A DNA stretch of 58,965 bases, filler included, from Globobulimina sp. (taxonomy: Eukaryota), in the NCBI GenBank assembly GCA_003354225.1. It is 10 parts of 10 records of this genome, joined end to end, with 100 filler letters (N's around TTAATTAATTAA, not from the genome) between each part and the next. Parts side by side here need not be neighbours in the genome. Positions count along the whole stretch, not along the records: positions 23,664 to 29,472 come from PIVH01000436.1; 9 more parts are not named here. One strand, written 5' to 3'. The notes under the pieces are model-generated. The model ran no database searches and was not told the DNA's origin. It saw only the letters and a list, made by a program, of their open reading frames with translations. This document shows, piece by piece, positions 309 through 42,443 of this stretch. Each line of letters starts with the position of its first letter. Positions within the stretch are counted from its first letter, which is position 1. The position numbers and the translations under genes were made by a program.

Positions 309-341
309 TATTTGAGTTTCAAGAATCAATAGTGTTGTACT

Positions 342-7782: not shown

Positions 7783-7849
7783 TCACGTGAGAGTTTTTTA
7801 CTTTGTTCCAAAAACCCGCCTTACTTGGAATATACTATCATATCTAAAA

Positions 7850-9529
7850 ATGAATACACCGATTTGTAAGTTCTACAAACCATACTTTAAATCAGGATGC
7901 CGGTATAAAGATCGCTGTCCTTTTGTACATTTAAATAAAACCCAATACGTTAAATATTGCCAGCTGATCAATGAACAAAATCTCCCAAATTATAACGCTA
8001 AAATAGAATACAACAAATCTTTAAATTTCGCAAAAAAACGCCGATACCGCGAAAGCATAGAAATATTAAAGAAATTATTAATTGATTATCCGTTAAATGA
8101 ACAAATACATGAATTACTCGCTAAATGTTACTGTTCTTCAAAATTGTACTAAAACGAAGCACGGAAAACATTTCAAAAATTAATTTCAATATATCCGTAC
8201 GATCCCATTCATCATAATAATTATTCAATGTTTTTATATCGGAATTATTCCAATTCTGCTGCAAAAAAACATTTTTTAAAATCGTTTGAATTAATAAACA
8301 ACCACGAATCTCCATCGTCGGCCGCTAAAACACATGGCTTATTTGCTAAATATCTGTTTGAAGTCGAGAACGATACACAAAAATCACAGCATCATTACGA
8401 CGTTGCATTGAGATTAAATGATAAAGACGCACAATGTCATTACAATTATGCTGTGTTGCTCTCTGAAATTGGATATCTAAACCATGCTGAATATCATTTT
8501 AAAAAATCTATAGCTACGGATGGAAACAATGGCGCTCCGTTTTTATGGCATCATTTTCAATACGCTCTGTTTCTGAAAAAAAAGATTCAGAAATATGATG
8601 AAGCGGAAAAACAGTTTATAAAATGTTGCCAATTAACAGTAAATTCCAGTATTTATCAACATATTTTATTTGAATATGGCTTATTTCTCGTTGAATGTCT
8701 TTCAAATTACGATTTAGGATTACGTTATTTACAGAAATCCTGTGACAATGGCTACAGTCAAAGATATCTCAGAATTTATACTTACCATAAAAATGTTTTT
8801 GAGACAACGCAAAGACCCATACAACAAACTGAAGAATATGACATATATCACATTGAAGCAAACAACGACGAAAACACAGCAGAAACAAAAGAAGAAACAA
8901 AAGAAGAACGAAAAGAGGAAAGAAAAGAAGAAAACAAAGAAGAAAGAAAAGATAATAAAAATAGGAGCAATATACCATCCTGTTCTGGAGAAGTATGTTT
9001 GCGTTTTTTTGTTGAGTAAAAATACGAAATGTAAATAATATGAATAGTTTCGACGTTTTTTGGAAGATAAGGTTTTTAATAATAGAATTATTGCAAGTGA
9101 TTACTATGCTAAATTTGCAGCTGACTCATTGAATGATATTCGCATTTTAGCTTTGAAAGAGTTTGATGACGAAATATTGAAAGAGTTTGATATTAAAATT
9201 AAAATCCATCGGATGATGTTTATGCAACAAAGAAGAAAGTTTGTCAACGATTGTGAAGCCGTTAAGATTTCCTTTAATTGTTTGTGTGTATATGATATTG
9301 CTATAAATTGTATACTGAACAGTTTGGTCAATGGTTGGGAGATATAAATATGACGGATGAGTATGAGGGTATTTTGAGTGGACATGGCATTCTTACATTT
9401 GAGTCCTTGTATCATTATGTAAATAATTCCAATGATTTGTTATATATTATTGGTCTACAAAATCAATCAGATGCTGAATGTATATGGCATTCAACTCCGA
9501 AAATGTCAAGACATAGTCATAAACAATGA
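7850..9529 (+). CDS. CCCH zinc finger + TPR repeats + two SAM-like domains; one in-frame TAA at 8150-8152
   Basis: C-x10-C-x5-C-x3-H at the N-terminus; TPR motifs (HYNYAVLL...AEYHFKKSI). Introns 8993-9047 and 9261-9322 join SAM-like exons. ORFs 7733-8152 and 8228-9019 share one frame, separated only by the TAA. Confidence 0.7.
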
Positions 9530-10264
9530 TAAATCTATAAATTATATCTTGCAAAGCTTTCTTTCTCAGGCTTCAATTGCCTTTGTTTTGTATTCTCGTT
9601 TTGTGCATTATGTTGCTTAGCTTCACAGCTTTAAAGCAATCCCACTCTTGAGTTTATTTTCCATGATCTTTTAATTGTATACACTTGTTCGATTCCAGAA
9701 TAATAAGTAAGAGGTTCAGTAGCTCAACTGATTCAGTAGCTCAACCAACAATAATATTTGCTTAATTATGATGCAATGTCTTAGGGGTTGTGCAATATAA
9801 GAACAACCCCTTAATACTATCATCGATCCGTAATAATGAACAGATTGCTAAATCAATAAAATCAGGTAATGACGGTGAAGAAAATTAAATGTAGTGTATA
9901 CAATTGCCTCCACAGTAAACGCAATAAATGAAATCAAACATATTTCATCACACATTTCTATCATCACAATTCTTTTTGGTGTCTGATGAATACAAAAGTA
10001 CTGCCAACGAGTGTATGCCCACCAAAATCCTTTGCATTTTCAGATATATTAATATGACTCATAACGAGGAATATTGGTATCTTTTCACTAAACCATTTAA
10101 GATATAAACCGCAAAACCTTATTTTGTACATGTTTTTTTTGTAATATGCTGCAAGTGGCGCATGTAAAGATGATCTCAATTAAAAATAAAAATATTTGAA
10201 TAAAATAAGAAATATCCTCATTCGAAAAATATTTCACCCAAAGAGAGGCAAAATAAAATGCACA

Positions 10265-11641
10265 TTATTCATTTATCGACACTTTGTTTGATTGTTCATG
10301 ATCACAATGGTCAATAACGATTTTAGTTTCAGTCTGTCCTATTTTTGAACCCATTTCTATCCCATCTTCGTCTTCTTGTTCACTTTTTATATCCTCGTTA
10401 ATCTGACCTCCATCATTCATATCTATTTTACATATTTCTTCAACATCTTTGGCCAACAAATGAGAGTAATTGTTATGCGAACACATATTTGTGAGTGTAC
10501 TGTCGCCTCTGTCACCGGTCGATGATGGATCTGTGTCAGATACTGAGAGCTTGCAAAATAAGTAATAAAATTCAGGAATGATCCATAACAAATAAACAAA
10601 AATAATGATAAATGATAAAATTGAATATTGAGCATTTTGATGTATTTGCTCATTAAATAACATTTGGCTCAATGTATACCACGATGCTGCAATTAAGCCG
10701 ATGCAGCACAAGCATACAATCAAAATCATGTAAGACACCATGCCTCCGACATTACTATCAATCGCATAAATCATTTGAATAATTTTATAAATTAACAAGA
10801 TGCAATAAAATATATTCGTAGACCAATGTGATGCGCAAATGGGATAAAAATCTTGTATTTTCTCCATCGGGTCGCGATCGACAGTATCATGCAACTCACC
10901 CATTTTTATGAAATCATGTTGCAATAATTTTACATCGTTGGCTCGATAATACACAATAAAATATACGCCAATCCATATTGAAAAGACCACAAAGTCAGCA
11001 ATCAAACATTTGGCCAACTTATTGGAAACGTTTTCATCTCCTTTATATTGCCCAAACTTTTCCTGTTTCATAAACTTGATAATAATGTTCATCAATTCCG
11101 ATTTGGAGGTAATAAACGCCAAGAAACTAAATGTAAACGCTACACATACAATGATAGGGCTACTGACACACAGCATATCATACCATATTTGATATTCATC
11201 ATAGCCAATATACACATTTGCATTCTTCTGTACACCATATGAAACCATCAAGATGCAATTCAATATTAAACCAATTGTGATGCTCAAATACTCAATTTTG
11301 CCCTCAGCCTTTCTCTTTTTATACGACAAAACCAATGCCAACACACACAGAAAAGCGTAGATTCCGCCCACAATCACTATGGCTTCCACACTAATTCCAA
11401 TCAACGCATCGCTCACTACAATATCAGAGCGAATAGGTTTAGAGCTGCCTGGATATGTAATATGCGCTATTGTGATATTTGCGGAGCCATTGGCAAAATG
11501 GCCAAGATTCCGTATTGTAATATTTGCCCCATTTGCTTCAACAATGCCATACAGCAATAGACCTTTAACTCGCTCACCATCTTTAAATGTAACAGGTCCA
11601 GTAATTCCTATAAACTCTATGCTGTTCATGATCTCATGCAA
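10265..11641 (-). CDS. Class C (GABA-B-like) GPCR, C-terminal part; 5' off-contig
   Basis: FIGITGPVTFKDGER is the typical end of a Venus-flytrap/ANF-receptor domain; about seven hydrophobic helices and an acidic tail follow. Confidence 0.7.
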   Translation of the reverse strand: MHEIMNSIEFIGITGPVTFKDGERVKGLLLYGIVEANGANITIRNLGHFANGSANITIAHITYPGSSKPIRSDIVVSDALIGISVEAIVIVGGIYAFLCVLALVLSYKKRKAEGKIEYLSITIGLILNCILMVSYGVQKNANVYIGYDEYQIWYDMLCVSSPIIVCVAFTFSFLAFITSKSELMNIIIKFMKQEKFGQYKGDENVSNKLAKCLIADFVVFSIWIGVYFIVYYRANDVKLLQHDFIKMGELHDTVDRDPMEKIQDFYPICASHWSTNIFYCILLIYKIIQMIYAIDSNVGGMVSYMILIVCLCCIGLIAASWYTLSQMLFNEQIHQNAQYSILSFIIIFVYLLWIIPEFYYLFCKLSVSDTDPSSTGDRGDSTLTNMCSHNNYSHLLAKDVEEICKIDMNDGGQINEDIKSEQEDEDGIEMGSKIGQTETKIVIDHCDHEQSNKVSINE

Positions 11642-11742
11642 ACTGTTGCTAATGTTCTCTGTATATGCATCAAAATTGGAGAATATTGCAAAATAAAATG
11701 ATAATAAATATATACAGATACTGTACCTAAGACATTACAGTC

Positions 11743-11842
11743 NNNNNNNNNNNNNNNNNNNNNNNNNNNNNNNNNNNNNNNNNNNNTTAATTAATTAANN
11801 NNNNNNNNNNNNNNNNNNNNNNNNNNNNNNNNNNNNNNNNNN
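11743..11842. other. Artificial contig linker
   Basis: N44-TTAATTAATTAA-N44. Confidence 0.99.
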
Positions 11843-12282
11843 TGGTCGGGCAGGTCCTCGAAGTCGGCAGAGATCTCGAACCTCGCCAATCGGTACCAGT
11901 GGCGGACATCCACCGCCGACTGCCCCATCAAGAGTCCCTTCACGGTCTTCCCTGCGATCTCACGCGTGTCGCAGAAGACGGACTCATAAGGAGTCACGTA
12001 CTGACCGCCAGGGACCTTGAAGAGGTTCATGTACTCCTGCTCGATCTCCGACTGGAGCCCCTCCAGACCCGACGCTGCCCGAAGCGACCTCCTGACATCG
12101 GCGACGAGCTCTTCACCGAAGACCTCGCCAACCGAGTCAAGGAAGGCACCCGAACGAAGCGACTCGAGGCTCTCGACCGAGGGCGGAGCCCTGAAAGCCC
12201 CGGAGAGGAAGGAGTACATCCCGATACGGAACGGACGAATCTCCGCGAGTTCACCTCGCCGTTCTAGAACAGATCCAGACAT
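11843..12282 (-). CDS. Bacterial TorD/DmsD-family redox-enzyme maturation chaperone, partial
   Basis: GC-rich segment; EYMNLF...PYESVF and LPD(H) motifs plus V..WY...F, typical of TorD/DmsD/NarJ chaperones. Truncated at the gap. Confidence 0.85.
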
Positions 12283-13259
12283 AGAATGGGAATGTTTGAT
12301 GTGCAGTTACATGAATTTAAGCATTATGGCGAGTTGTAAAATATGTTCACATCAGAAAACACATAATAATGATAAACGTTTTTCTAACAACAAAATATTT
12401 GCGGTCTTTGTTTGCGGCCCAGATCCAACCCAAAATGAACAAGATTTGAATTCGCGAAATTTGCGTGGTCAAACCTATATAGATTTGTTGCAAGATACCA
12501 ATGCCAATGATGAAGAATGGAGAGAATATATGATTTATAAAAATGAGTTTCCATCAAATGATGAAATGCATAAATGTTCCGGCATTGTAATAAGTGGTTC
12601 CAAATATGATTCATATACAAATGATGCTGAATGGAAATTGAAATTGCAAGCAATTATAAGAGATATTTATTATAATCAGAGGAAAATTAAATTGTTAGGT
12701 ATTTGTTTTGGGCATCAAATAATTATACATTCATTAAGGTATTTGTACATATTTCATGTGATAAATTTAGAGAAACTCTTTTTTTTTGGTTTCCTGATAC
12801 AGAGAGAAAGAGGAGATTGTTGTTGGTAGAAATAGTAAAAGAACATCGATGGAATTAGGATTATTTGCTATTAATTTGAATGATAAATTTGATGCATTTT
12901 GGGCGAGATATAATGTTAAAATAAGTGATGAATTATTATGGATCCATGAAGCCCACAATGACATTGTCTTTAAAATGCCGGAAAATGTAGTAAATAATGA
13001 TGATATGCGTATGGATGTAAATATTTTAGCATACTCACAATATACAGATAATGAAATGTATCACATTGGTGATTATATTTTAGGAGTTCAGGGTCATCCA
13101 GAATTTTCAACCGATTATTTATCAAAGGCCATTGTTACAAATCAGAAAGGTATCGGTTTAGATGATGATGAAATGAATGCTGTTTTGGATACAATGAAAT
13201 TAAATAAACCAAGTGTGTGTGAATGGAAATATATGCTTAAAACATGGTTAAGGGCTTGA
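12271..13259 (+). CDS. Class I glutamine amidotransferase-like (gamma-glutamyl peptidase-like) protein with N-terminal RanBP2-type zinc finger; true 5' end missing
   Basis: WECLMCSYMNLSIMASCKIC (W-x-C-x2-C-x3-N-x6-C-x2-C); GIVISGS; nucleophile elbow GICFGHQ; QGHPEF. A 64-nt intron (12739-12802) joins the two ORFs in frame. Confidence 0.85.
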
Positions 13260-13422
13260 ACCTGTTGGAAACACTTTTTTTTTGAAATTGTATACATTAT
13301 CCTTGCACTTAACAGTAGTTTTCTTTTTTTTCATCCTAGCTTTGTCAGACGTAAAAATGGATTTGAGTTTAAACAAACAAGCATTGTACGTTTGTGTATA
13401 CGATACACTCGGATACAGTTTA

Positions 13423-15632
13423 TTATAAAATGTCGAAACCAGCTCGATGTCTCAAACGAAAAATATTATCAACAACTTGTTGTGTACAGTTCATTTCCTG
13501 CTGTTTATAATCAATATCATTATCATTATCCTTATCATCATTATTGTTCCATCCAATGGGTCCCCACAAAGTAACATGCGAATCCAATCCAGAACTTACA
13601 AATATTGGCAAATGCGGATGTGTGGCGATATTGTTTACAATATTTGTTCCATTCACTAATATATTGACAATATCCCCATTTAAGCGATCATAAATATATA
13701 TTTTCTTATCGTCTGAGCCAGAAATAATATAGTTATCACTAAAAAATTCTGCCTCTTTAATCGTCTCACAATGAATATGGCCAACATATCTTCCAAAATA
13801 ATAAATATTTTCATTCAAATCATGCAAATCACTCTCTTCTCCAATTATCATTCCATTAATTCTAACATTCTCACCATTAACATCCGGATTCTCTTTCTCA
13901 TCCTCAACATAACATTTATACGCTAACTTATAATATTTATTGTCATAACAATTAATAATATCCATATTGCTATCCATTGGCGGCAACAACATGTCTTTTT
14001 CTTTATTCTTCTGCTTATTCTTCGCAATTATATTTTTATTCCATTTCATACATTTCATAATATCATTTTTATTCATATCACACAACATTTTCATATCATT
14101 TTTATTCTCCTGCAATTCAATTAATTTCGTTTCTTTTTCTGACACCAAATTAAATAAAATATCCTGGAAATTCCTCTCTGAACACTTTGTCCGTAAAACC
14201 TCTTTTCGTCGACTTACTAAAGCATCCACATGGTCCAATATGTCATTATAAAACATATTATCATCGCTAGCATTGTCACTAACATTGTTATGTATATCTA
14301 CTCTCTCTCGTGCTGCATTATGCATTCTCGAAAGCATGGCAAAGTTCAACATCTCCACAAATTCACCGTATTCACCCTCACTCTCACTCTCCTCACTCGA
14401 CAGCTCACTCAATGCACTCTCTCCATTAGCATTAATACTCTCCGCCAGCACAGGAGGCGGCGCATTGATATTCCCATCTTCCTCGTGGATAAATTGCATT
14501 ATCTCTGCAGTCTCATCATTGATGTTCGCTGTGTTTGCAAGTGACTTATTTGAGTCATAACATGTGGTTGGATTCATATACAAATAGCACGCATCGTGAA
14601 TGTGTGTAGTTAGTATCTCAGAGCCGTCACTGTTATATTTAGCATGTGTGGGATGGCAATGTTGCGGGAACTTTAGCCGAAAATTATAAAAACACGAAAT
14701 AGCATTGTTTTTATGGTATTTAAATAAGGAGTTTATCTCTGAATATTTATTATCTGTGCAAGCAGCATCACCATGTTTGCGTAAATCAAATATGCGAATA
14801 TATCCATCGCCGCAACCGGTCACCATCTCCCATGGTTTTAGAGGATTTATGTCAATGCTATACACTTCATAGTGTTTGTTGAACGTATTAAAGTCGTACA
14901 ATAGAGATTGACTGAAGCGGCCTCGATTTGTCCTTGGTCCACCACCAAAACCTTGGATGATAATATCCTGCGAACAGTGTAGAAACGTTTTTGTTTTATA
15001 TTTTCGGCGGACATCAAAGTGTCGGATAGTACCATCTGCGGAACACGAAAAGATCTCAAATGGTTTGGCCGCGTGGACGCAGATTTTGAGGATTTTGCGT
15101 GAATGATGATGGTATGAATGGAATGGTTTTATAAATAATGAACTCGCTGTTGTTTGTGGCTGGTTATTGTTTTTATGATATGGTTTGAAAGTGAATGGGG
15201 AGTGGTTGATGTCGTAAATATTAATATCTGCGTCATTTCCACCGGATGCTATTCTATTATTTATACCAAAGACACACGAATTATACATAAATTTGGCAGT
15301 GAAGACATTGCTTAAATGTCCTTTTAAAATACATAGCATTTTTGCGGTTTTACCGGTGTATTTTATACCAAATGCATCCCAGACACGGACAGTTTGATCA
15401 TCTGAACCGGTGCAAAGGTGACGACCTGATTTCTCCCAACAAACAGTATTTACACAACCTTTATGTCCGTATAAAGTCGATATTTTATGTAATGAGTGTA
15501 TAAAATCATCTTTTTTAGTTGTTGATTTTTTGAATTTGTTTGAGTAATTCTCGTATGATGAAGTTTGAGGATTATTCTTATTTGATGGCGGATTTGTGGT
15601 ATCGATTCTTTTGGGCGTCTTTTTAAAGACAT
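13423..15632 (-). CDS. DCAF-type WD40 protein (DCAF6/DCAF8/WDTC1-like); start codon out of frame
   Basis: FIHSLHKISTLYGHKGCVNTVCW...TGSDD, GHLSNVFTAKF, SCSADGTIRHFDVR, YVGHIHCETIKEAEFF, SGSDD, VNNIATHP and SSGLD. Frame is open 15639-13423, but the ATG at 15632 is in another frame. Confidence 0.85.
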
Positions 15633-16285: not shown

Positions 16286-17653
16286 CTAAGTGTCATACAG
16301 ATCTTGAAACTCTTTTATCATTTCCAATAAATGGAATTCTTCAACCACCTGCATACTTTTTATAAGATACCGTTCCATTTTTTTAATATCAAATATATTG
16401 TTTGTTGAAACCAATGCAAAATTGAATGCAGACATTACATTTTCAACTTCTTCTTGGTTTTTCAAAACATAAACGTCATTGCTTCTGCCAATATATTGCA
16501 TCATAGCAGTAACACATTGTTTATAGTTATAAGATGGACGTGAATCGAATACGCGATTGCAGGTTTCATGCAATATTTTTAACATAGCAACTTTCATGTT
16601 GAATTCACGGAATTGTTTCGCTTCCGAAATATTTAATAATGCTGCATAACTTGGAAACACATCAATAAGACATGCTGTCATTAACGATTCAAAGTTAAAC
16701 AATGTTTTGATATTTTCAGTTGTTAAACTTGCGATGCCATCTCCACAATGTAAATCTTTTAAATGTACATTCTCATTCAACACATTTCCATTATGTTTAA
16801 ATGCGTTTGGTACGCCATAGATTGACTGGGTTTGAATATTGTGTTTCGTTTCTTTTATTGTCCAATCATCATTTGCATTGAAATGAAATGTTACAATCCC
16901 ATCTGTGATTTCTAACATTGTCATTTCTGACTGATATCCAATATCTATTTGCATTTTAACGTTTTTTCGATATTGAATACGTTTAATACCAGTTACATCT
17001 GCTATTTTATCAAATTGTTGTTGTGTGTTCAATAATATATGGTGTTTCTTTTTAGATTTTAATTTTTGATGTATTATTTGTTCAATTCCGTACAAATCTT
17101 TTGCTACTTTCTGCGGTAATTCAATTGCAGATGAGCCAATAGTTCTGACCCTCCTCAAAACGGATAGACATTTCTTAATGTCTACATTTTTCATTGGTAA
17201 TGCTTTTTGTTTATAATCAATTGCAAATGATATCCATTGTATATTTTGATTTGCATGTAAATATCGTTCGGGTAAATTTTCTGAACCAAACTTTAATAAT
17301 ACATGCGATTCTAATCCATACCCATCATTATCATCAAGTCTATATGCTTCGATTCCTGTCTCTCGTTGTATAAGATTCAACATTTTTTGGTACAACAGTG
17401 TAGGTACTCCTTCCGATGCTAATATAATTGCATCTTTAAACTGCTTCAATTTTGAAACCAAACAGATTTTTCCAATGGAGAGGATTGCTTTTGCTTTTTT
17501 ATCCATCGTCAGTACCAATTGTTTACCATCAAAATTTGCCGGATTTAACGATGTTTCCACCCCTGGACTGGCCAATACATATCCATTCTCCTTATCTTTA
17601 ATTGTTAATGTATGGCTAAATAGCACACCTCGTGGCGCCGATAAAATTCCTAA
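16286..17653 (-). CDS. Divergent Spo11/topoisomerase VI subunit A-like protein (TOPRIM region) with long C-terminal extension; 5' off-contig
   Basis: LGILSAPRGV, AIILASEGVPT, AYRLDDNDGYGLE...LKFGS, IQWISF and LPMKNVD align with Spo11 motifs (LNVVA..KG, CIIVTAKGQPD, LVDxDPYG...YGS, IKWLG, LPMT..D). Confidence 0.65.
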   Translation of the reverse strand, partial: LGILSAPRGVLFSHTLTIKDKENGYVLASPGVETSLNPANFDGKQLVLTMDKKAKAILSIGKICLVSKLKQFKDAIILASEGVPTLLYQKMLNLIQRETGIEAYRLDDNDGYGLESHVLLKFGSENLPERYLHANQNIQWISFAIDYKQKALPMKNVDIKKCLSVLRRVRTIGSSAIELPQKVAKDLYGIEQIIHQKLKSKKKHHILLNTQQQFDKIADVTGIKRIQYRKNVKMQIDIGYQSEMTMLEITDGIVTFHFNANDDWTIKETKHNIQTQSIYGVPNAFKHNGNVLNENVHLKDLHCGDGIASLTTENIKTLFNFESLMTACLIDVFPSYAALLNISEAKQFREFNMKVAMLKILHETCNRVFDSRPSYNYKQCVTAMMQYIGRSNDVYVLKNQEEVENVMSAFNFALVSTNNIFDIKKMERYLIKSMQVVEEFHLLEMIKEFQDLYDT

Positions 17654-17753
17654 NNNNNNNNNNNNNNNNNNNNNNNNNNNNNNNNNNNNNNNNNNNNTTA
17701 ATTAATTAANNNNNNNNNNNNNNNNNNNNNNNNNNNNNNNNNNNNNNNNNNNN
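17654..17753. other. Artificial contig linker
   Basis: N44-TTAATTAATTAA-N44. Confidence 0.99.
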
Positions 17754-23563: not shown

Positions 23564-23663
23564 NNNNNNNNNNNNNNNNNNNNNNNNNNNNNNNNNNNNN
23601 NNNNNNNTTAATTAATTAANNNNNNNNNNNNNNNNNNNNNNNNNNNNNNNNNNNNNNNNNNNN
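23564..23663. other. Artificial contig linker
   Basis: N44-TTAATTAATTAA-N44. Confidence 0.99.
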
Positions 23664-23666
23664 ATT

Positions 23667-25295
23667 ATGAATATTCAAGAAGAAACATATTATATTTCAA
23701 CAAAACAACTATTATTACTTAAAAAATGGAGTATATTATTTGGTTGGTTAGGATTAAATACTTTGGCGTTTTACATACAATTATATCATTTTAAGTATTT
23801 GTATTTATTCATAGTCCCAATTGAACCAATTACAAAATTTTTACATTTATTAAATATTTATCGGTATTATTTGATGAAATTATTTAAAAAAATATTTAAA
23901 ATAGAAGAAAAACCAGAGTTTGATGATTATATTAATGATAAAATAGTATTTACGATAACGTGTTATACTGAATCATTTAATGAAATATACGGAACACTTG
24001 ATTCGTTATGTGATTCTATTATAGAAAGTAAAAAACAAAGTGTAATATTTGTAATATATGATGGATTATCAAAAGAAAAGGGAACAGATAAATATACTTG
24101 GGAATTAATTATGGAAAAAATGGAAATAAAAAATTATATAGAAGGTATTGATTATAATGAAAATTGGAAAAAAATACCAAATAAAATTAATATTGGTGTC
24201 TGTAAATATAGAGATTTAATAATTGTAAATATTATTAAACAAGTAAATCTTGGAAAAACAGATTCACTTACATTTACAAGAGATTTATTAACAGGTCATT
24301 TAAATAATAATATAACTGAAATATTAACAACAGAAATAAATAAAAATAATTTTGATATTAGTGATGTATATTATTGTGGTTCAATGGATGCTGATTGTTA
24401 TATTGATAAGGAAGCTGTTGGGAAATTACATTATGATATAAGTTTAAAAGATGTAGTTGGTGTTAGTGGAATTGTTTATCCGAGACAAGAACAAGTTGGT
24501 TTTTGGAGTATTTATCAATTTGCTGAATATTATAGTTCTCAATTATTAACAAGATTATCAATGAGTATTATGGGTAATGTAACTTGTTTGCCAGGAGCAT
24601 TAAATATATTTGATTTACATGGATATACGGATACAGTAAGAAATGAATTTTTATTATATCCGAATAAAAGAAATATGTGTAGAACATTATCAGTAGTAGT
24701 TGGTGAAGATAGAAGATTTACAGGATTGAGTTTATATAATAATTTAACTATGAGAACTATAATTAATACAGATGTTAAAATTTATACAACTGTTCCGGAT
24801 TCACTAAAACAAATGATAAGTCAGCGAAGAAGATGGTTGACTGCTTCTTGTATTAATGATTATTATGATGTAATTGGAACAAATATTAGATTAATTGTTA
24901 GAATAGAAGCAATTGGTAATTTAATTTCGCTTAGTTTGTATTTATTTGTTTATGTGATGCTTTTATCTTTCTTTATGGGATATATAGTTCCGTTTTATAA
25001 TGAACAACCATCCATTTATTTTTTAACAATAATGATAATAATAGGTTTATTTATTTTATATAAAATTATATTAGTATCAATACGAATTAAAGAAATTAGA
25101 AATAAATGTATATATATAGTTGGTGAAATATTATTTATATTCTTTGCTCATTTATTTGTTATTTTAATGTTATTTAAGTGTATTTTATCTCTTGATAATT
25201 TTGGATGGGGTAATGTTCATCAAAATGTTATAGAAGTTATAGAAGTTGTAGAAGTTGTAGTTGATAAAAATGAAAATATTGTAGAGTTAGATTAA
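23667..25295 (+). CDS. chs: Chitin synthase (GT2), compact type, probably giant-virus encoded
   Basis: TCYTES, KQVNLGKTDS, DADC, QFAEY, VTCLPG, GEDRR, QRRRW and C-terminal FGWG motifs; TM helices at both ends. The ATG is 3 nt from the contig edge, so the N-terminus may be incomplete. Confidence 0.92.
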   Translation: MNIQEETYYISTKQLLLLKKWSILFGWLGLNTLAFYIQLYHFKYLYLFIVPIEPITKFLHLLNIYRYYLMKLFKKIFKIEEKPEFDDYINDKIVFTITCYTESFNEIYGTLDSLCDSIIESKKQSVIFVIYDGLSKEKGTDKYTWELIMEKMEIKNYIEGIDYNENWKKIPNKINIGVCKYRDLIIVNIIKQVNLGKTDSLTFTRDLLTGHLNNNITEILTTEINKNNFDISDVYYCGSMDADCYIDKEAVGKLHYDISLKDVVGVSGIVYPRQEQVGFWSIYQFAEYYSSQLLTRLSMSIMGNVTCLPGALNIFDLHGYTDTVRNEFLLYPNKRNMCRTLSVVVGEDRRFTGLSLYNNLTMRTIINTDVKIYTTVPDSLKQMISQRRRWLTASCINDYYDVIGTNIRLIVRIEAIGNLISLSLYLFVYVMLLSFFMGYIVPFYNEQPSIYFLTIMIIIGLFILYKIILVSIRIKEIRNKCIYIVGEILFIFFAHLFVILMLFKCILSLDNFGWGNVHQNVIEVIEVVEVVVDKNENIVELD

Positions 25296-25355
25296 AATAT
25301 GGAGGGTATTATTACTAATAACAATGAAAATTAAAAAAAAAGTTTTTTCATGAAT

Positions 25356-25363
25356 AAAATTGA
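25356..25363 (+). promoter_or_regulatory. AAAATTGA Mimiviridae-type early promoter motif
   Basis: Exact octamer 36 nt upstream of the ATG at 25400. A second copy at 29310-29317 precedes the ORF at 29373. Chance occurrence is possible in such AT-rich DNA. Confidence 0.55.
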
Positions 25364-25399
25364 TTTTATTATGTATACTATATATATACTTAAATTACT

Positions 25400-27490
25400 A
25401 TGAATGATCAAGTTATAATTTCAAAATATAAACATTATAAACCAATTGAAGGAACAAAATATTTTAATTTACCACCAAAAGAAGGTTGTGTTTCAGTAAT
25501 TATACCATTTTATAATGAAAAAAGAAATGAATTACAAATAACATTAAAATCATTATACGAAGGTTTTAAATATTTAAGAACTATGGAAAATAAATGGGAT
25601 GATAAAGAATTAGTAAAAATAATGATAATCCAAGATGGTTGGTATAAAGCATCTGAATCAATGAAAGAATATTTAAAAGAATTATTCCCTAAAAAAATAG
25701 ATAATAAAGATTGGTGGGATTATTATAAAGAGTTTAGTGATTTTGATTATAAAATAGATGGGCCAACAACTTTTGTTTTTGAATGTAAAAAACAAATATG
25801 TATAAACCAAGATAAAATAGAAGATAATATTCAAAGACCAGTTTTTTGTAATATAACGATGGTTATAAAAATAGATAATAGAAAGAAACATAATTCTCAC
25901 GAATGGTTTATTGGTCGTTCAGGTTTTTCAGAAAGTATGAAATCTAAATATATGTTCTGTACAGATGCTTTTACAATATTTAATAAAACTTGTATATATC
26001 ATTTAATTAATCATATGGAAAAAAATCCGGAAACATCAGTATCAACAGGGAGGCAAAGAGTTATGACTCAAAAACAACAAGGAACTGATGAAAATTATTA
26101 TTCATTATCAACATTATTAAGATACGTTCAATTGTTTGATTTTGAAACTTCAAATGTTGTTTATAATGGTGCGTTTTCATTAGGAGGTTGTTTACCGGTT
26201 GTTCCTGGTCCTTGTGGAATGTATCGTTCAAGTGATATGTTACAAAATAATGTAAGAGATTGGTATTTTGATATTGTAAATGAAGAACCAAGTAATACAG
26301 GTTTAGTATTAGGGAATTTAAGAATAGCAGAAGATAGAATATTATCATATTCATCAGTATTAAAAACAGAAGAAGAACGAAATATGGCTTTTATTCCACT
26401 TGCTATTTTTTATTTTGAGGCAGAAACAGATCTTCAACAATTCTTATTACAAAGAAGAAGATGGATTAATGGTTCAGTAGCAGGATATATTTACTTATTA
26501 TTTTCAAAACCAGAACATATCTTAAAATGGAAAATAAATATATTTAGAAAATGTTATGTTTGGTTATTATTAATGTGTCAATTTATAACATATTTTATAG
26601 TTTCACTTGGGCCAGCATTTTCAATTAATATCTTTTATTATTCATTAGGTTATTCATTATCACATATATCAACAGATAATTATGATACTATACAAACATT
26701 TACAAATCTTGCAACATTGGGAGCTTGGTGTTTATTTATTTATCATATGCTTTCACATAGAAATAATAAATTTAATTATACTATCATATATACTTTATTA
26801 TTATTTTCATTTGTTACATCTTTATTGTCAATTATAGCATTAATATTTTATTTGAATACTTTTAATAATATACCTTTATTTTTCTTAGATACTTTATTAA
26901 GTGGTAATATTATTATATATTTAGTTCTGTTGGTATTTATAATGCCGTTTGTAGCTTCTTTGTTACTATCAGGAAGAGGTCATAGTTTCTTTTATATGTT
27001 AAAATCATTTCCTTGTTATTATTTATTTTCTCATATGTTAATATCTGGTTTTGGTAGTTATTCATTTGCCAGAACTTGGGATTTAACTTGGGGCAATCGT
27101 CCATCAAGTGAAACAACATCAACCAATATGACTATTGAGGAAATGAATATTGTTAAAGATAAATTTAAAGAAAAAAGTAGAAGTGGTATAGTAGTTATTA
27201 TAATTGCTAATTTAATATTATTCTTATTACCAAAAAATATACAAATGGGTTTCGTAGGTATTTTTTTCTTTGTTGCTTTTTTCCAATTATTTTTTTCATT
27301 TATTTATTTAATATTAAATTTTCCAGATAAGATGAAATACGTATATAGAAAATACATGATGGGTGAAATTGAAAATTCAAGTCAATTACGAGAAATTGAA
27401 TTACTTGATATAGAAAGTCATCAAGAAAATAATGGAGTTATAGATATTAATACGGAAAAAGTGGATAATGTGGAAATAGTAATCCAGTAA
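25400..27490 (+). CDS. chs: Chitin synthase (GT2), fungal division-1/oomycete-like type
   Basis: PFYNE, QDGW, KIDNRKKHNSHEWF, VVPGPCGMYR, NLRIAEDRIL, ETD...QRRRWING and TWGNR; multiple C-terminal TM helices; intronless. Confidence 0.92.
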   Translation: MNDQVIISKYKHYKPIEGTKYFNLPPKEGCVSVIIPFYNEKRNELQITLKSLYEGFKYLRTMENKWDDKELVKIMIIQDGWYKASESMKEYLKELFPKKIDNKDWWDYYKEFSDFDYKIDGPTTFVFECKKQICINQDKIEDNIQRPVFCNITMVIKIDNRKKHNSHEWFIGRSGFSESMKSKYMFCTDAFTIFNKTCIYHLINHMEKNPETSVSTGRQRVMTQKQQGTDENYYSLSTLLRYVQLFDFETSNVVYNGAFSLGGCLPVVPGPCGMYRSSDMLQNNVRDWYFDIVNEEPSNTGLVLGNLRIAEDRILSYSSVLKTEEERNMAFIPLAIFYFEAETDLQQFLLQRRRWINGSVAGYIYLLFSKPEHILKWKINIFRKCYVWLLLMCQFITYFIVSLGPAFSINIFYYSLGYSLSHISTDNYDTIQTFTNLATLGAWCLFIYHMLSHRNNKFNYTIIYTLLLFSFVTSLLSIIALIFYLNTFNNIPLFFLDTLLSGNIIIYLVLLVFIMPFVASLLLSGRGHSFFYMLKSFPCYYLFSHMLISGFGSYSFARTWDLTWGNRPSSETTSTNMTIEEMNIVKDKFKEKSRSGIVVIIIANLILFLLPKNIQMGFVGIFFFVAFFQLFFSFIYLILNFPDKMKYVYRKYMMGEIENSSQLREIELLDIESHQENNGVIDINTEKVDNVEIVIQ

Positions 27491-27519
27491 AAAGTTTTTC
27501 TTTTAATAAAATTAACCTT

Positions 27520-27554
27520 CATTTTATTTGTTTATAGAATATATACAAATAATG
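27520..27554 (+). terminator. AT-rich hairpin between chs2 and chitinase, candidate giant-virus-type 3'-end signal
   Basis: TTATTTGT-t-TATA-gaa-TATA-t-ACAAATAA (27524-27552) forms a 12-bp stem with one mismatch and a 3-nt loop, 33 nt after the chs2 stop. Confidence 0.35.
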
Positions 27555-29321
27555 AAATTACAAATTACTTTAGAATCTACAAAAAATTGGGGTAATTCTG
27601 GAAATGGAGTAATGAAAATAACAAACGAAAGTGAAGAAGATATAGAAGGTTGGCAATTTAAAATAGAAACAAAAAACTTTAATATTAGTCAATTTTGGAA
27701 CTTTAATTACTCCAATGATGAAGTTACTTCAAAAGATTGGAATAAAAAAATCGTTTCAAAACAAACAATTGAATCAGATTTTGCATATTCTGGAAGTAAT
27801 ATATTTGAAGCAAGTTCTTCAACCGAAGGTATAACACTTGAAACAAAAAATACAATACCAACAGAAGAACCAATACCAGAAGAAAACATTGATATGGTAA
27901 TAAAAGATCCATTAAAAACAAAAAAAGTAATATTTGGTTATTATGCTGAATGGAGTATTTATCAAAAAGAGTTTAGTGTTGAGCTAATACCAGTTCATAA
28001 TTTAACTCATATCGTTTATGCTTTTATGTTACCGAATCCAAGTCAATCAGATTTAGATAAATTAACAGCAAAATATCCATTTCCGCCTTTACCATATAGA
28101 GCACCACCAGTAGTTCCGGAAGCAGCTTTAGTATTTCACGATGAATCGGCAGCAATATTAAATATATCAAAATTAAAAAGTTTAAAACAGAAAAATCCAC
28201 ATATTAAGTTATTAATGTCTATTGGTGGATGGACATTATCTTGGACATTTTCAAAAATAGCAGCAGATCCATTATTAAGAAAAGAATTAATAGATTCGTC
28301 TATTAAGTTTATAATAGATAATGGTTTTGATGGGATTGACATTGATTGGGAATTTGTTGGTAAACAAGGCATGTCTTATAATAATGTAGATATAGAAAAT
28401 GATGGTTCAAATTTTGTTATCTTATTAAAAGAATTAAGAGAAGCATTAGATATTGCTTCACCAAGTAAACATTTAGAAATAACAGCAGCAACTGGTTGTA
28501 ATCCGGTTGTTATTGCTAATTATGATGGAACAGAACCATATATTGATTATATATCATTAATGACATATGATTTCACAGGAGGTTGGGATACAATGGGAGG
28601 TCATTTAAGTGGAATATATAATAATCCAAAGGGAGCAATAGATAAAAGTTTCAATGTTGATTCAGCAGTTAAAAATACATTAAAAATTGGTTATCCACCA
28701 GAAAAAATTTGTATAGGTTGTCCTTTTTATGGTCGTGGATGGGAAAAAGTAACACCAGAAGATCCAGAAAATCCTATTTTTGGCAAAGCTTCAGCTCCAG
28801 CAGTTACTATTAGTGGAGATTATGGAGAACCAGGATTATCTTCTTGGAGAGATATTAGAGATGCTATTAATAAGGGAGATTATAAAGTATATGAAGACCC
28901 TATCTCAAAAGCAGCTTATTGTGTAGATAAAAATGGAAAAACTTGGTCTTATGATAGTCCAAAAACAGCACAATATAAAGCTGAATATATAAATAAAAAT
29001 AATTTAGCTGGTATAATAGTTTGGGAATTATCTGATGATACGAGAGATGGAAAAGATAATATTTTAGATACTATTATTAAAACATTGTCAATGGAAGGAG
29101 AGGAAGAAAAAGAGGATGAATCTGATATAGAAGACATTGATGAAGAAATCCCAATTGAACCTATGCCAGAACCTATGCCAGAACCTATGCCAGAACCTAT
29201 GCCAGAACCTATGCCAGAACCAGAATATGATAATTTAAGTGTATCTATTAAAAATGAAGGAACAATAGATATTATAATTAAACCAGGACAAACTATTAAA
29301 TTAACTTGTAAAATTGAATAA
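27552..29321 (+). CDS. GH18 chitinase with N-terminal CBM2-like module and C-terminal acidic/Pro-rich linker
   Basis: GYYAEW, SIGGW, intact catalytic FDGIDIDWE (DxxDxDxE), MTYDF, GCPFYGRGW, SYDSP and WELSDD. N-terminal W-GNSG...KITN...IEGWQF...FWN...DWN pattern of CBM2. Probable start is ATG 27552 rather than TTG 27528. Confidence 0.95.
   Translation: MKLQITLESTKNWGNSGNGVMKITNESEEDIEGWQFKIETKNFNISQFWNFNYSNDEVTSKDWNKKIVSKQTIESDFAYSGSNIFEASSSTEGITLETKNTIPTEEPIPEENIDMVIKDPLKTKKVIFGYYAEWSIYQKEFSVELIPVHNLTHIVYAFMLPNPSQSDLDKLTAKYPFPPLPYRAPPVVPEAALVFHDESAAILNISKLKSLKQKNPHIKLLMSIGGWTLSWTFSKIAADPLLRKELIDSSIKFIIDNGFDGIDIDWEFVGKQGMSYNNVDIENDGSNFVILLKELREALDIASPSKHLEITAATGCNPVVIANYDGTEPYIDYISLMTYDFTGGWDTMGGHLSGIYNNPKGAIDKSFNVDSAVKNTLKIGYPPEKICIGCPFYGRGWEKVTPEDPENPIFGKASAPAVTISGDYGEPGLSSWRDIRDAINKGDYKVYEDPISKAAYCVDKNGKTWSYDSPKTAQYKAEYINKNNLAGIIVWELSDDTRDGKDNILDTIIKTLSMEGEEEKEDESDIEDIDEEIPIEPMPEPMPEPMPEPMPEPMPEPEYDNLSVSIKNEGTIDIIIKPGQTIKLTCKIE
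29157..29216 (+). repeat. Coding tandem repeat (GAACCTATGCCA)x5 = (EPMP)5
   Basis: Five perfect 12-bp units in the chitinase linker. Confidence 0.95.
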
Positions 29322-29372
29322 ATATTTTTTAGAAAAATTAAAAATAATTTAAAATATATATATATATATATA

Positions 29373-29472
29373 ATGAATAAAATATTTCAAAGAACAATCA
29401 AAAGAAGTTTTGTTGATAGACGATTAATTAATCCTATGTATAAACATTATCAATTAGATACTATGAGACAAC
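29373..29472 (+). CDS. Partial ORF of unknown function (MNKIFQRTIKRSFVDRR...), truncated at contig end
   Basis: ATG after a (TA)n run and 55 nt after AAAATTGA; open to the gap. Confidence 0.45.
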
Positions 29473-29572
29473 NNNNNNNNNNNNNNNNNNNNNNNNNNNN
29501 NNNNNNNNNNNNNNNNTTAATTAATTAANNNNNNNNNNNNNNNNNNNNNNNNNNNNNNNNNNNNNNNNNNNN
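29473..29572. other. Artificial contig linker
   Basis: N44-TTAATTAATTAA-N44. Confidence 0.99.
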
Positions 29573-30265
29573 TTTACTTTTCATGTCAACAATTTTTTCA
29601 AATAAACTTACATCATATAATATCTTATCTTGATTGCACAACAAATCCAATTTATCTTTAGCAACGTTCGAGAGTTTATCGTTGCGGAGTAACAATTTTT
29701 TATCGGACAAACGCTGATATATTTTATTTTGCATTTGTGCGATTAACGTTTGACCCAATAATTTATATCCGAGAATAAAATAAATCTCCATTATGTTATC
29801 ATACGTATCGTCATCCAAACCAGTAAATAAAAGTGCATTATCAAAGGAGTAATCAGATATCAATTCGATCAACGTTTGATTGGTTGTTGCTTGCTTCAAT
29901 TTCCATTTCTGAAACAGTGATAATCCATTTGATAAATGCTCAGAAAGTCGAATTTGCGGTCGTATGGTTTGTGTCGTTGTGGGTGAAGGCAATAATGATG
30001 CCAACCACTTTAAATTCCATATTAGATTGCTATCATTATCACCATACATATTATAGAATTCATTCACGATTTCATCGATTAATTGATGTTTAGGCCTTTC
30101 GTTGATTGTAAAACTGGAACATGTGAATATTTTGTGCATAGATTTTAACAGAACATTTTTATGCTGGTCCGCATAGAATTTACTTGTTTTGTTAAAATCA
30201 ATGGATGCCCCGGAAATAGTGACATAAATTGACACAAAAAGAATGAAAGGCTGAACAAACGACAT
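29573..30265 (-). CDS. Hypothetical secreted protein, 3' truncated
   Basis: ATG 30265 gives signal-peptide-like MSFVQPFILFVSIYVTISG; open to the gap. Confidence 0.6.
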
Positions 30266-30321
30266 GAGATGAGTTTTCAAGCAAAACTTGTTTCAGTTAG
30301 AAAGTTTCCACTGTACTTTAG

Positions 30322-35379: not shown

Positions 35380-35479
35380 NNNNNNNNNNNNNNNNNNNNN
35401 NNNNNNNNNNNNNNNNNNNNNNNTTAATTAATTAANNNNNNNNNNNNNNNNNNNNNNNNNNNNNNNNNNNNNNNNNNNN
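35380..35479. other. Artificial contig linker
   Basis: N44-TTAATTAATTAA-N44. Confidence 0.99.
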
Positions 35480-41279: not shown

Positions 41280-41379
41280 NNNNNNNNNNNNNNNNNNNNN
41301 NNNNNNNNNNNNNNNNNNNNNNNTTAATTAATTAANNNNNNNNNNNNNNNNNNNNNNNNNNNNNNNNNNNNNNNNNNNN
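41280..41379. other. Artificial contig linker
   Basis: N44-TTAATTAATTAA-N44. Confidence 0.99.
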
Positions 41380-41677: not shown

Positions 41678-42443
41678 TTATTGAGTTTGTACAATGCCTT
41701 TTTGATGAATTAATAATGGATTTCGCATTCCATATATTTTATACTGTTCCGGTATGTCATCTTCTTGATACAACTCCTTTGAGAAATAAATCTTTCTTAC
41801 TCGACAATTTGCAAATATCTTGATTGAGTTTGTATATTTATATTTTACATTAAATACTCGTTTACATAATGACTCCAAATCAATCACAATAATATTCCAA
41901 CAGCCATTGTCTACTTTCAATGGCAACGAGCATTTATTCTCAATTAATCGAGCCAATGATTGCTTATTTGTGCAAACAAACACTTTTTCCTTTTTTTCTT
42001 CGTCGGAAATATTAATTTCAAATCCCATATATTTATTCATATTTTTTATTTGTAATATTAAAAACGGATAAGGCGTGCCAATATATTTGGATCTATTATC
42101 TGGAAACACAATCGATGCCTTCTCAAATTCGTCACTTTCTAAGGTTACCACTGGCGATGCAACCTCGGCGTCATTAATTATCCGAATCGATGATGCTGTT
42201 CTTGCATTTTCTATTGTTTACATAGTAAAATATAAATGTAACTGATAAGTGAATTCGAATAATGCAATATCATACTCTCGCATTTCCATCCTTGCAATAA
42301 AGATTTCTCGTTACATCTGTTTCAAGTTCAAACGTATAATTTAAAAATTTTGAAAGCTTAATAGTACTCAACAGAAACGGTAATATTGCAAATAGTTCCA
42401 TGGCCATTTCATCTGTGCTTTGATCAGAATCAACAAAGTCCAT
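41678..42443 (-). CDS. CFAP20: CFAP20/BUG22 (DUF667) family protein, divergent
   Basis: PFLILQIKNMNKYMGFEI...LPLKVDNGCWNII...IFANCRVRKIYFS..LY.ED.IP..YKIY matches CFAP20. Two short upstream exons can be spliced from ATG 42443. Confidence 0.8.

Follow-up and report, generated by a model that had tools for sequence, protein, structure and literature searches.

A chitin synthase and chitinase gene module on a probable mimivirus-like contig

Introduction

Among giant viruses, chloroviruses combine a compact GT2 chitin synthase (CVK2 type) with GH18 enzymes, represented by the PBCV-1 and CVK2 chitinases, and with a chitosanase. As described in PMC9614988, the chlorovirus chitin synthase (CHS) is expressed early and chitin fibres form on infected cells, while the chitinase contains two GH18 domains and GH18 chitinase(s) are absent from the virions; an adjacent cassette arrangement of the chitin genes does not feature in that description. 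Virus-made chitin is described as experimentally shown only for chloroviruses. The phaeovirus Ectocarpus siliculosus virus 1 (EsV-1) also encodes a chitin synthase according to a preprint (bioRxiv 10.1101/2025.02.06.636530), and a review lists a chitin synthase together with a chitinase for Fadolivirus within a single sentence. Apart from that sentence, our searches of article text on chitin genes in giant viruses found no account or test of such a module in Imitervirales.

Here we describe a compact chitin module on one short contig: which genes it comprises, the motifs they carry, their affinity to viral genes and how often the module recurs. It differs from the chloroviruses, which belong to the order Algavirales, in its Imitervirales-like affinity, in a chitinase that joins a CBM2 domain to GH18, and in a second synthase of the Chitin_synth_1 type, which the chloroviruses lack in the present comparison.

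Results

The chitin genes occupy one whole AT-rich contig

The window, i.e., the whole stretch of 58,965 nucleotides that was analysed, consists of ten unrelated contigs of ~5.8 kb, sorted by size and joined via artificial linkers of N's around TTAATTAATTAA. Two linkers exactly bound positions 23664-29472, and the finding therefore comprises one whole contig.

23564..23663, no strand: artificial linker N44-TTAATTAATTAA-N44, dividing the contig from the preceding unrelated contig
23664..29472, + strand: whole contig, 5809 bp, GC 0.25, 96% coding
29473..29572, no strand: artificial linker N44-TTAATTAATTAA-N44, dividing the contig from the following unrelated contig

The earlier note had described this DNA as more AT-rich than its neighbours. 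The difference itself stands, with a GC of 0.25 against 0.31-0.39 on the nine other contigs, but these "neighbours" are separate contigs behind artificial linkers: the apparent flanks of the chitin-gene contig are the linkers, and the other nine are not physically linked to it. Both ends of the contig fall in virus-like sequence. Eukaryotic genes are found on the nine other contigs, encoding CFA20, a Spo11/TopVIA Toprim domain, a hAT dimerisation domain, a C2H2 zinc finger, CAP-Gly, SAM and WD40.

On the contig, three consecutive co-oriented ORFs are uninterrupted and intronless, with spacers of 104 nt (chs1-chs2) and 61 nt (chs2-chitinase), just as the earlier note had reported, and a fourth ORF begins at the right end.

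23667..25295, + strand: chs1, 542 aa, compact GT2 chitin-synthase-like protein with Chitin_synth_2 and C-terminal transmembrane helices
25400..27490, + strand: chs2, 696 aa, Chitin_synth_1 and Chitin_synth_2, with EDR, QRRRW and TWGN
27552..29321, + strand: CBM2-GH18 chitinase, 589 aa from the ATG, with SIGG and DGIDIDWE
29373..29472, + strand: fourth ORF, first 33 codons only, cut at the contig end

ORFs of 542-696 codons in DNA of 25% GC are far beyond chance. No relative was found for the 33 codons of the fourth ORF. The markers by which the earlier note would have placed the contig among NCLDVs did not turn up: no gene for MCP, PolB, A32 ATPase or VLTF3 was found among the three whole ORFs scanned on the contig or on the nine other contigs, and none for RNAP either. 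On a fragment of 5.8 kb with three complete genes and a stub of 33 codons, this absence is uninformative. With no hallmark gene, it is homology, signals and composition that carry the assignment to a virus.

Two different predicted synthases and a CBM2-GH18 chitinase

The chs1 product matches Chitin_synth_2 (PF03142) with 78.5 bits against a cut-off of 27 and carries the motifs DAD241, EDR347, QRRRW386 and WGN514, whose positions are invariant in an alignment of 16 sequences (A1). The single sequence retrieved no match among solved structures by sequence, whereas the family profile matches yeast Chs1 best (8k3p, E 4.7e-9) and Xenopus HAS1 as well (E 3.6e-5); QRRRW and the C-terminal WGN align with QRRRW and SWGT of yeast Chs1, while HAS1 has QQTRW. 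An AlphaFold model (pLDDT 82.9, pTM 0.82) was used for fold searches, in which chitin synthases of yeast and Candida come first by E-value (about 1e-15) and Chlorella virus hyaluronan synthase is best by TM-score among solved structures (TM 0.59/0.64, rmsd 5.8). Among viral models, the best match is the GT2/chitin synthase ORF84 of EsV-1 (E 1e-28, TM 0.77/0.85), at an identity of only 20%; we know of no linkage of ORF84 to a chs2 or chitinase gene. The BFVD entry M1HWF1, which we take to be a chloroviral protein, superposes with a TM of 0.77/0.76 at only about 22% sequence identity. In the range below 36% identity, named relatives of chs1 come from chytrids and microsporidia. A homologue of 40% identity lies on an IMG/VR contig of GC 0.24 beside genes for RNA polymerase Rpb2, dCMP deaminase and GFAT, so that of the linked GFAT or UDP-GlcNAc genes anticipated earlier, GFAT is present next to a chs1 homologue on that contig. 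The chs1 product is a putative compact GT2 chitin synthase of the phycodnavirus type, although the polymer that it makes is not certain.

The chs2 product matches both Chitin_synth_1 (PF01644, 57.8 bits against 25) and Chitin_synth_2 (PF03142, 34.7 against 27). It aligns to the solved Phytophthora sojae Chs1 (7wjm, E 1.8e-28), with EDR311, QRRRW351 and TWGN564 (WGN564 in its shorter form) in register with AEDR, QRKRW and SWGT of that enzyme. A simple Kyte-Doolittle scan places six hydrophobic 19-residue segments at residues 385-639, in the C-terminal half. The chs2 product is a predicted chitin synthase of the Chitin_synth_1 type, related to oomycete and fungal enzymes.

The third gene encodes a GH18 chitinase (Glyco_hydro_18, PF00704, 262.7 bits against 29.6), which could alternatively start at a TTG at 27528 to give 597 aa. 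SIGG223 and DIDWE263, the latter inside DGIDIDWE, are present, and the protein aligns to chitinase 5gzu (E 1.1e-94) with DGIDIDWE opposite DGIDLDWE; the catalytic motifs that the earlier note had called intact are thus found in all three proteins. The N-terminal CBM_2 match is borderline (PF00553, 25.2 bits against 24), and the same CBM2-first layout scores better in relatives (E 6e-6 to 9e-22). The N-terminus contains no hydrophobic stretch, and the C-terminus has a (PEPM)n repeat with a short tail after it. CBM2-first chitinases of this kind, without signal peptide, recur in giant-virus-type loci.

A Mimiviridae early-promoter word precedes the three examinable ORFs

In mimivirus, AAAATTGA precedes roughly 45% of genes and marks early genes, as reported in PMC5294985. 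On the contig, this word or a one-base variant occurs at the following sites.

25356..25363, + strand: AAAATTGA, early-promoter word of the Mimiviridae, 44 nt upstream of the chs2 ATG
27508..27515, + strand: AAAATTAA, promoter word with one base changed, 44 nt upstream of the chitinase ATG
29310..29317, + strand: AAAATTGA, 63 nt upstream of the fourth ORF

The exact word thus stands before two ORFs, chs2 and the fourth, in agreement with the earlier note, and a further AAAATTAA lies at -39 of the fourth ORF. Because the chs1 ATG is 3 nt from the contig start, chs1 has no upstream region. AAAATT[G/A]A is found 39-63 nt upstream of all three examinable start codons (3/3; the chance of all three in shuffles is 0.0066), and its count on the contig is 7 on the plus against 1 on the minus strand. 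Window-wide, AAAATTGA is not enriched (15 found, 17.8 expected). Across nine related loci, exact AAAATTGA lies within 100 nt upstream (<=100 nt) of 43/85 ORFs, compared with 1.3-3.6% of random 100-nt windows, a share that matches the proportion in mimivirus. Upstream of the chitinase, the early-type variant is present with no sign of late expression, which speaks against a simple scheme in which chitin is built early and cut late.

Homology and phylogeny point to Imitervirales

Among the 120 chs2 matches listed, the only virus-named ones are Fadolivirus (50%), Homavirus (47%), Satyrvirus (47%) and Tupanvirus deep ocean (46%), all of them Mimiviridae and relatives at the level of orthologues; the sole other named organism source among these matches is a EukProt transcript at 41%. 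The nearest relatives (63-67%) are giant-virus MAG-type contigs with matching GC; within IMG/VR, the closest chs2 locus belongs to a giant-virus MAG contig (63%).

In a chs2 tree of 47 rows from a quick IQ-TREE search, the window chs2 and the IMG/VR giant-virus MAG fall in a 5-row clade (SH-aLRT 99), nested in a 14-row clade composed of metagenomic sequences only (SH-aLRT 100). The latter stands beside a 20-row clade (SH-aLRT 99) with Fadolivirus, Homavirus, Satyrvirus and Tupanvirus, and the EukProt group branches outside. The window chs2 therefore sits apart from the named Klosneuvirinae/Tupanvirus sequences, in a neighbouring and so far purely metagenomic clade, while sharing with that group the use of AAAATTGA as a promoter word. 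Homologues, chs2 tree, promoter word and giant-virus-MAG relatives agree with the Imitervirales affinity suggested at the outset, and this predicted mimivirus-like affinity is well supported.

The module recurs in related giant-virus loci

A chitinase shares the locus with chs2 in 12 of the 86 loci fetched with chs2, sometimes together with deacetylases; a chs1-type gene adjoining chs2 was seen in none of the 86. The closest relatives are two loci, L011 and L012 (chs2 63-67% aa, chitinase 58-64% aa, 74-76% nt), of which L012 is the best DNA relative (76% identity over 2043 nt). L011 contains the IMG/VR giant-virus MAG contig (L001); giant-virus MAG bins can include cellular contigs. As on the window contig, chs2 in L012 is directly followed by a CBM2-GH18 chitinase, and the GC of both loci (0.25 in L011, 0.265 in L012) resembles that of the window contig. 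Both have dense intronless genes, and L011 also an ankyrin array. Differences are likewise evident. The islands in L011 and L012 are larger, with two polysaccharide deacetylases, a UDP-glucose dehydrogenase-like gene (a weak match, E about 7e-6) and a further pair of GT2 synthases whose identity to the window chs1 is only about 27%; in L012, chs2 is doubled and fused (1357 aa). On the window contig, by contrast, deacetylase and dehydrogenase genes are both absent and chs1 is of another type. In Homavirus, chs2 and a GH18 chitinase gene lie on one contig (L015), about 0.9 kb apart.

The uniqueness of the cluster is weakened, since other giant-virus contigs in public data, that of Homavirus among them, also pair chs2 with a chitinase of the CBM2-GH18 type. 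The contig thus carries a real, probably giant-viral chitin module that is not unique.

Discussion

The contig is probably a fragment of a mimivirus-like giant-virus genome (Imitervirales, near Klosneuvirinae/Tupanvirus) that bears a compact chitin module. A different origin, which we regard as unlikely, would make it part of an endogenous element from a giant virus, or of a small gene island of viral derivation, integrated in the nucleus of the eukaryote whose contigs make up the rest of the window, so that the host would own, and perhaps use, the chitin genes. The contig was indeed assembled together with nine contigs bearing eukaryotic genes, the run with most of the sampled words (0.75), maybe the source sample, is labelled as one coded organism and not as a metagenome, and the preprint cited above (bioRxiv 10.1101/2025.02.06.636530) describes an integrated giant-virus element with a chitin synthase in a brown alga. 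Yet there is no junction to cellular DNA at the virus-like, linker-bounded ends, the GC departs from that of the nine other contigs, and the three ORFs are intact with the promoter word spaced as in free Mimiviridae, so that no sign of decay is seen. Far less probable is that the DNA is cellular and derives from an unsampled AT-rich, gene-dense eukaryote, e.g., a parasite or amoeba in the sample, its giant-virus relatives reflecting ancient exchange of genes or MAG contigs binned wrongly. Genes for chitin synthases and GH18 chitinases are typical of eukaryotes, chytrids and microsporidia supply the named chs1 relatives below 36% identity, the nearest chs2 clade is metagenomic throughout, and the contig has no viral hallmark gene. 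Against these points, every virus- or organism-named chs2 match above 45% identity among those listed belongs to Mimiviridae, the EukProt group lies outside in the tree, and the Mimiviridae word precedes about half of the genes (43/85) in the closest loci; moreover, ankyrin arrays, an Rpb2 gene and GFAT occur in compact intronless related loci, and the signal-peptide-less, CBM2-first chitinase recurs in loci of giant-virus type.

The product of chs1 is a separate matter. The genes could be viral and chs1 could nevertheless synthesise hyaluronan or some other polymer or oligomer that contains GlcNAc, e.g., for fibril glycans, and the module would then not be simply one that builds and cuts chitin. 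The TM-score ranking of Chlorella virus hyaluronan synthase, the HAS1 profile match and the weak UDP-glucose dehydrogenase-like gene in L011 and L012 point in this direction. Chitin synthases, however, are the best Pfam and profile matches, the QRRRW and WGN motifs follow yeast Chs1 and not HAS1, the contig has no dehydrogenase, and in locus L002 GFAT is the only gene linked to the chs1 homologue. We consider a non-chitin product quite unlikely.

For the probable mimivirus-like fragment, co-assembled with DNA that probably comes from a flagellated or ciliated eukaryote, we infer as follows what the enzymes make, when and where in the cell they act and which role they serve. The module would consist of two membrane-embedded, processive GT2 synthases, mechanistically similar and evolutionarily different, plus one chitinase, with the genes under the Mimiviridae early promoter. 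In the manner of the chlorovirus CHS on infected Chlorella, both synthases would build beta-1,4-GlcNAc chains from UDP-GlcNAc and push them across a host or virus-factory membrane. The chitinase, lacking a signal peptide, would be produced in the cytoplasm and would bind and cut chitin on contact, at lysis or entry, or in trimming the virus-made polymer. By analogy with chloroviruses, the virus may, as the earlier note proposed, coat the cell or virion in chitin and later cut it. It is conceivable, if somewhat doubtful, that an uncultured AT-rich mimivirus-like branch possesses a complete pathway to make, modify and cut chitin, by which the infected flagellate, the virus factory or the virion would be wrapped in chitin or chitosan; the two unrelated CHS classes, early promoters and cytoplasmic CBM2-GH18 enzyme would act here together with the deacetylases and GFAT of sister genomes. 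If so, the contig would tie the virus to a specific eukaryotic host and would represent the first such system beyond chloroviruses, in a heterotroph-type host assembly.

Across this contig and its relatives, a chitin synthase beside a chitin-binding chitinase recurs in mimivirus-like viruses, and in the closest clade there are entire islands that combine several synthases with deacetylases and genes for sugar nucleotides. The eukaryote-labelled assembly offers a possible host link for the virus. If the genes are active, giant viruses would use chitin or chitosan to remodel the surfaces of protist cells, and this would matter for superinfection exclusion, grazing, aggregation and the flux of carbon and nitrogen.

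Gene content and setting of the contig

The segment at 23664–29472 is exactly the fifth of ten pieces that make up the 58,965-base window, and constitutes a complete contig of 5809 bp. ORF calls, Pfam matches and a motif scan bear out the earlier note in its description of three co-oriented ORFs with intact catalytic motifs; the intergenic spacers along the contig are 104, 61 and 51 nt, and the coding share is 96%.

Genes and promoter words of the chitin-gene contig
23667–25295, +, chs1, 542 aa; Chitin_synth_2 (78.5 bits, cut-off 27); DAD, EDR, QRRRW and WGN motifs
44 nt 5′ of the chs2 ATG, +, promoter word AAAATTGA
25400–27490, +, chs2, 696 aa; Chitin_synth_1 (57.8 bits, cut-off 25) plus Chitin_synth_2; EDR, QRRRW and TWGN motifs
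44 nt 5′ of the chitinase ATG, +, one-base variant AAAATTAA
27552–29321, +, chitinase, 589 aa; Glyco_hydro_18 (262.7 bits, cut-off 29.6) and a borderline CBM_2 (25.2, cut-off 24); SIGG and DGIDIDWE motifs
63 nt 5′ of the fourth ORF, +, promoter word AAAATTGA
29373–29472, +, fourth ORF, first 33 codons, cut by the contig end

The 33 codons of the fourth ORF have no significant match among the 89 relatives' loci searched (best E 0.94). A short (TA)n run occupies 29355–29372, directly 5′ of its ATG.

Sequence reading and a script located nine artificial linkers, whose positions divide the window into contigs of 5823, 5819, 5811, 5810, 5809, 5807, 5800, 5796, 5796 and 5794 bases, ordered by descending size. 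Since such linkers lie at both edges of the chitin-gene contig, its apparent neighbours in the window are not its flanking DNA. The reading of a low-GC viral island integrated between the eukaryotic genes of this window was rejected on these grounds, the seeming flanks being linkers between size-sorted contigs. ORFs that begin or end inside linkers (e.g., 5876–7573, 29525–30280 and 47224–48444) are partly artefacts at those ends.

Features elsewhere in the window
5824–5923, 11743–11842, 17654–17753, 23564–23663, 29473–29572, 35380–35479, 41280–41379, 47176–47275 and 53072–53171, artificial linkers N44-TTAATTAATTAA-N44
16286–17626, −, Spo11/TopVIA-like gene
41678–42151, −, CFA20 (cilia/flagella) gene; profile positions 1–47 missing from the ORF
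55479–56918, +, hAT-transposase-like ORF

The GC content is 0.25 in the chitin-gene contig versus 0.31–0.39 across the nine others, so that the greater AT-richness claimed earlier holds, as a comparison with unlinked contigs. Those nine encode eukaryotic domains, i.e., CFA20, Spo11/TopVIA Toprim, hAT dimerisation, C2H2 zinc fingers, CAP-Gly, SAM, WD40, GPR180/TMEM145 and sulfatase, and a domain scan of them found no giant-virus hallmark gene. The CFA20, Spo11/TopVIA-like and hAT-like genes indicate that the co-assembled eukaryote is flagellated or ciliated, and its genetic code appears to be the standard one. The small introns that had been ascribed to these contigs are suggested solely by the CFA20 gene, which likely contains one because its Pfam match begins at profile position 48 of 185. 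Two sediment-metagenome sequencing runs share a small fraction (0.06) of sampled words, which is no evidence of habitat; none of the matching runs listed is an RNA run.

Two different classes of synthase

Residues 32–571 of chs2 align with chitin synthase 1 of Phytophthora sojae, a solved structure (7wjm, E 1.8e-28), with the EDR, QxRRW and WG motifs in register, and its C-terminal half contains six hydrophobic segments. A homologue search among 8000 candidates returned 384 proteins under E 0.001, the best 120 of which were listed. Among the matches listed, the top two share 67% and 63% identity with chs2. A virus is named as the source of just four, which come from Fadolivirus (50%), Homavirus (47%), Satyrvirus (47%) and Tupanvirus deep ocean (46%); beyond these, the single source with a named organism is a EukProt transcript (41%). 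The 63% homologue sits on L001, an IMG/VR giant-virus MAG contig. In a quick IQ-TREE search with 47 rows, the window chs2 falls with the L001 sequence in a 5-row clade (SH-aLRT 99) nested in a purely metagenomic clade of 14 rows (SH-aLRT 100); this in turn adjoins a 20-row clade (SH-aLRT 99) that contains the four named Mimiviridae, and the EukProt group lies outside these viral and metagenomic clades.

The chs1 protein has diverged further. As a single sequence, it matches no solved structure. A profile of 16 relatives places yeast Chs1 first (E 4.7e-9) and Xenopus hyaluronan synthase 1 next (E 3.6e-5). The AlphaFold model built from the 16-relative alignment is of high confidence (pLDDT 82.9, pTM 0.82). 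Ranked by E-value, its matches among solved structures are chitin synthases of yeast and Candida; ranked by TM-score, the best is a Chlorella virus hyaluronan synthase (0.59/0.64). In the comparison with predicted viral structures, EsV-1 ORF84 (E 1e-28, TM 0.77/0.85) and M1HWF1 (TM 0.77/0.76), which we take to be a chloroviral entry, come out on top; both stand far above the “chitin synthases” of the chs2 kind from Klosneuvirinae. Given these differing structural and profile matches, the contig holds two different GT2 synthase classes, with chs1 belonging to a compact, phycodnavirus-like type and chs2 to the Chitin_synth_1 type. The QRRRW and C-terminal WGN motifs favour chitin as the predicted product of chs1, and we regard another product as rather unlikely.

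The chs1 family is small: a search of 1.84 billion representative proteins gave no more than 19 at E 1e-30, and their identity falls from 51% and 47% directly to ~30%. A single-sequence scan of IMG/VR gave zero relatives and an alignment-based scan gave three; homologues occur at 40% identity on the IMG/VR contig L002 and at 38% on a giant-virus MAG contig. In L002 (GC 0.24; 4129–14344), the chs1 homologue is flanked on one side by RNA polymerase Rpb2 and dCMP deaminase genes, and on the other side, with one gene between, lies glutamine-fructose-6-phosphate amidotransferase (GFAT), chs1 standing two genes upstream. GFAT is the enzyme of the first step towards UDP-GlcNAc, and its proximity ties the chs1 type to UDP-GlcNAc supply; the linked gene of this pathway that the earlier note sought is thus present on a relative's contig.

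Chitinase architecture

The chitinase aligns with chitinase 5gzu across the catalytic DGIDxDWE (E 1.1e-94); its best homologues reach 61% identity, with 54% for a chitinase fragment from Homavirus. Its N-terminus enters CBM2 at once without a hydrophobic stretch; the CBM2-first layout is common to four chitinases among the relatives scanned (L005, L006, L017 and L027; CBM2 from residues 4–11), and the L050 enzyme has an N-terminal extension ahead of CBM2. At the C-terminus (window 28992–29321), an acidic stretch is followed by a (PEPM)n repeat and a ~35-residue tail; the same place in relatives is taken by collagen-like repeats (L027) or Pro/Glu-rich PARP-like repeats (L017). Such repeats might mark a fibre- or virion-associated form of the chitinase. 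A chitinase of opisthokont type is described in an excerpt of the ChoanoVirus report (PMC6789865).

A recurrent module in giant-virus loci

We searched 89 relatives' loci, 86 fetched via chs2 and three via chs1, with the three window proteins. Both chs2 and a chitinase are found in 12 of the 86 (L005, L006, L011, L012, L015, L017, L021, L027, L032, L033, L034 and L050), a count that includes some identical sequences from two collections, and many of the loci without a chitinase span merely 1.5–4 kb. Where chs2 is at least 45% identical, 7/15 loci have the chitinase, and four of the remaining eight are shorter than 3 kb. In addition, 14 contig sizes common to the chs2 and chitinase match lists suggest possible co-location. 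The module is not unique; the pair recurs even in Homavirus (L015), where the chitinase lies ~0.9 kb away from chs2.

The nearest relative, L012 (GC 0.265; 76% nucleotide identity across 2043 nt), is ordered as a dehydrogenase-like gene, a GT2 synthase, a polysaccharide deacetylase, a fused double chs2 and a CBM2-GH18 chitinase. It shares the chs2-then-chitinase order with the window, but its chs2 is doubled and fused: one ORF of 1357 aa (4660–8733) comprises two tandem chs2-type units, 67% and 58% identical to the window chs2, and the chitinase comes immediately after it. L011 (GC 0.25), which contains L001, carries eight co-oriented glycan genes and then two co-oriented ORFs without a Pfam match within 1–12100; its order is a GH18 chitinase, a deacetylase, a dehydrogenase-like gene, a GT2, a GT2 synthase, a deacetylase, chs2, two unknowns and a set of six ankyrin-repeat genes in whose midst a GNAT gene lies. 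Its dehydrogenase is weakly UDP-glucose-dehydrogenase-like, its GT2 synthases number three including chs2, and its two deacetylases are of polysaccharide type, a layout that suggests a putative chitosan-making island.

No true chs1-type gene was found beside chs2 in any of the 86 chs2 loci, and the GT2 genes adjoining chs2 in L001, L011 and L012 are only 26–27% identical to chs1; the window trio is thus a new combination inside a recurrent module. Main-text literature searches on giant-virus chitin genes turned up the chlorovirus work, in reviews, but no account of this cluster or what it does in Imitervirales.

Promoter signal and origin of the contig

The exact word AAAATTGA precedes chs2 and the fourth ORF, in agreement with the earlier report of a word upstream of two ORFs. 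The joint pattern AAAATT[G/A]A occurs in 3/3 examinable upstream regions (shuffle chance of all three 0.0066), and seven times on the coding strand of the contig versus once on the opposite strand. Over the entire ten-contig window, AAAATTGA shows no enrichment; only its placement and strandedness within this contig, together with the statistics of related loci, count as evidence. In nine of these, the exact word stands within 100 nt upstream of 43/85 ORFs (4/4 in L012, 8/16 in L011 and 0/4 in L003), versus 1.3–3.6% of random 100-nt windows. The available part of a review places it ahead of ~45% of mimivirus genes as a marker of early genes (PMC5294985), and the Tupanvirus paper, from whose main text chitin is absent, counts ~410 copies in intergenic regions. 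The word lends independent support to a predicted transcription system of Mimiviridae type.

Collectively, the chs2 homologues and quick tree, the giant-virus MAG relatives and the promoter word uphold the proposed Imitervirales affiliation. Most likely the contig is one piece of the genome of an Imitervirales member, on an AT-rich and so far uncultured branch beside Klosneuvirinae and Tupanvirus, and was co-assembled with the eukaryote. That it is an endogenous viral element in this eukaryote seems rather unlikely; no junction lies on the contig, and a brown alga is reported to contain an integrated element with a chitin synthase (bioRxiv 10.1101/2025.02.06.636530). An origin in the cellular genome of some unsampled AT-rich eukaryote is less likely still, the promoter statistics and virus-named homologues speaking against it.

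Implications for viral chitin metabolism

This is a genuine feature of giant-virus type; what is new is the gene combination, the module itself being already present in public giant-virus genomes. Chlorovirus CHS, in the excerpt available, is expressed from 10 min post infection and gives rise to chitinase-sensitive cell-borne fibres (PMC9614988). The promoter words suggest that the whole cassette, chitinase included, may be expressed early. With chlorovirus CHS as the model, both synthases would extrude chitin through an infected-cell membrane, and the chitinase, lacking a signal peptide, may attack chitin during lysis or entry or else trim back the polymer.
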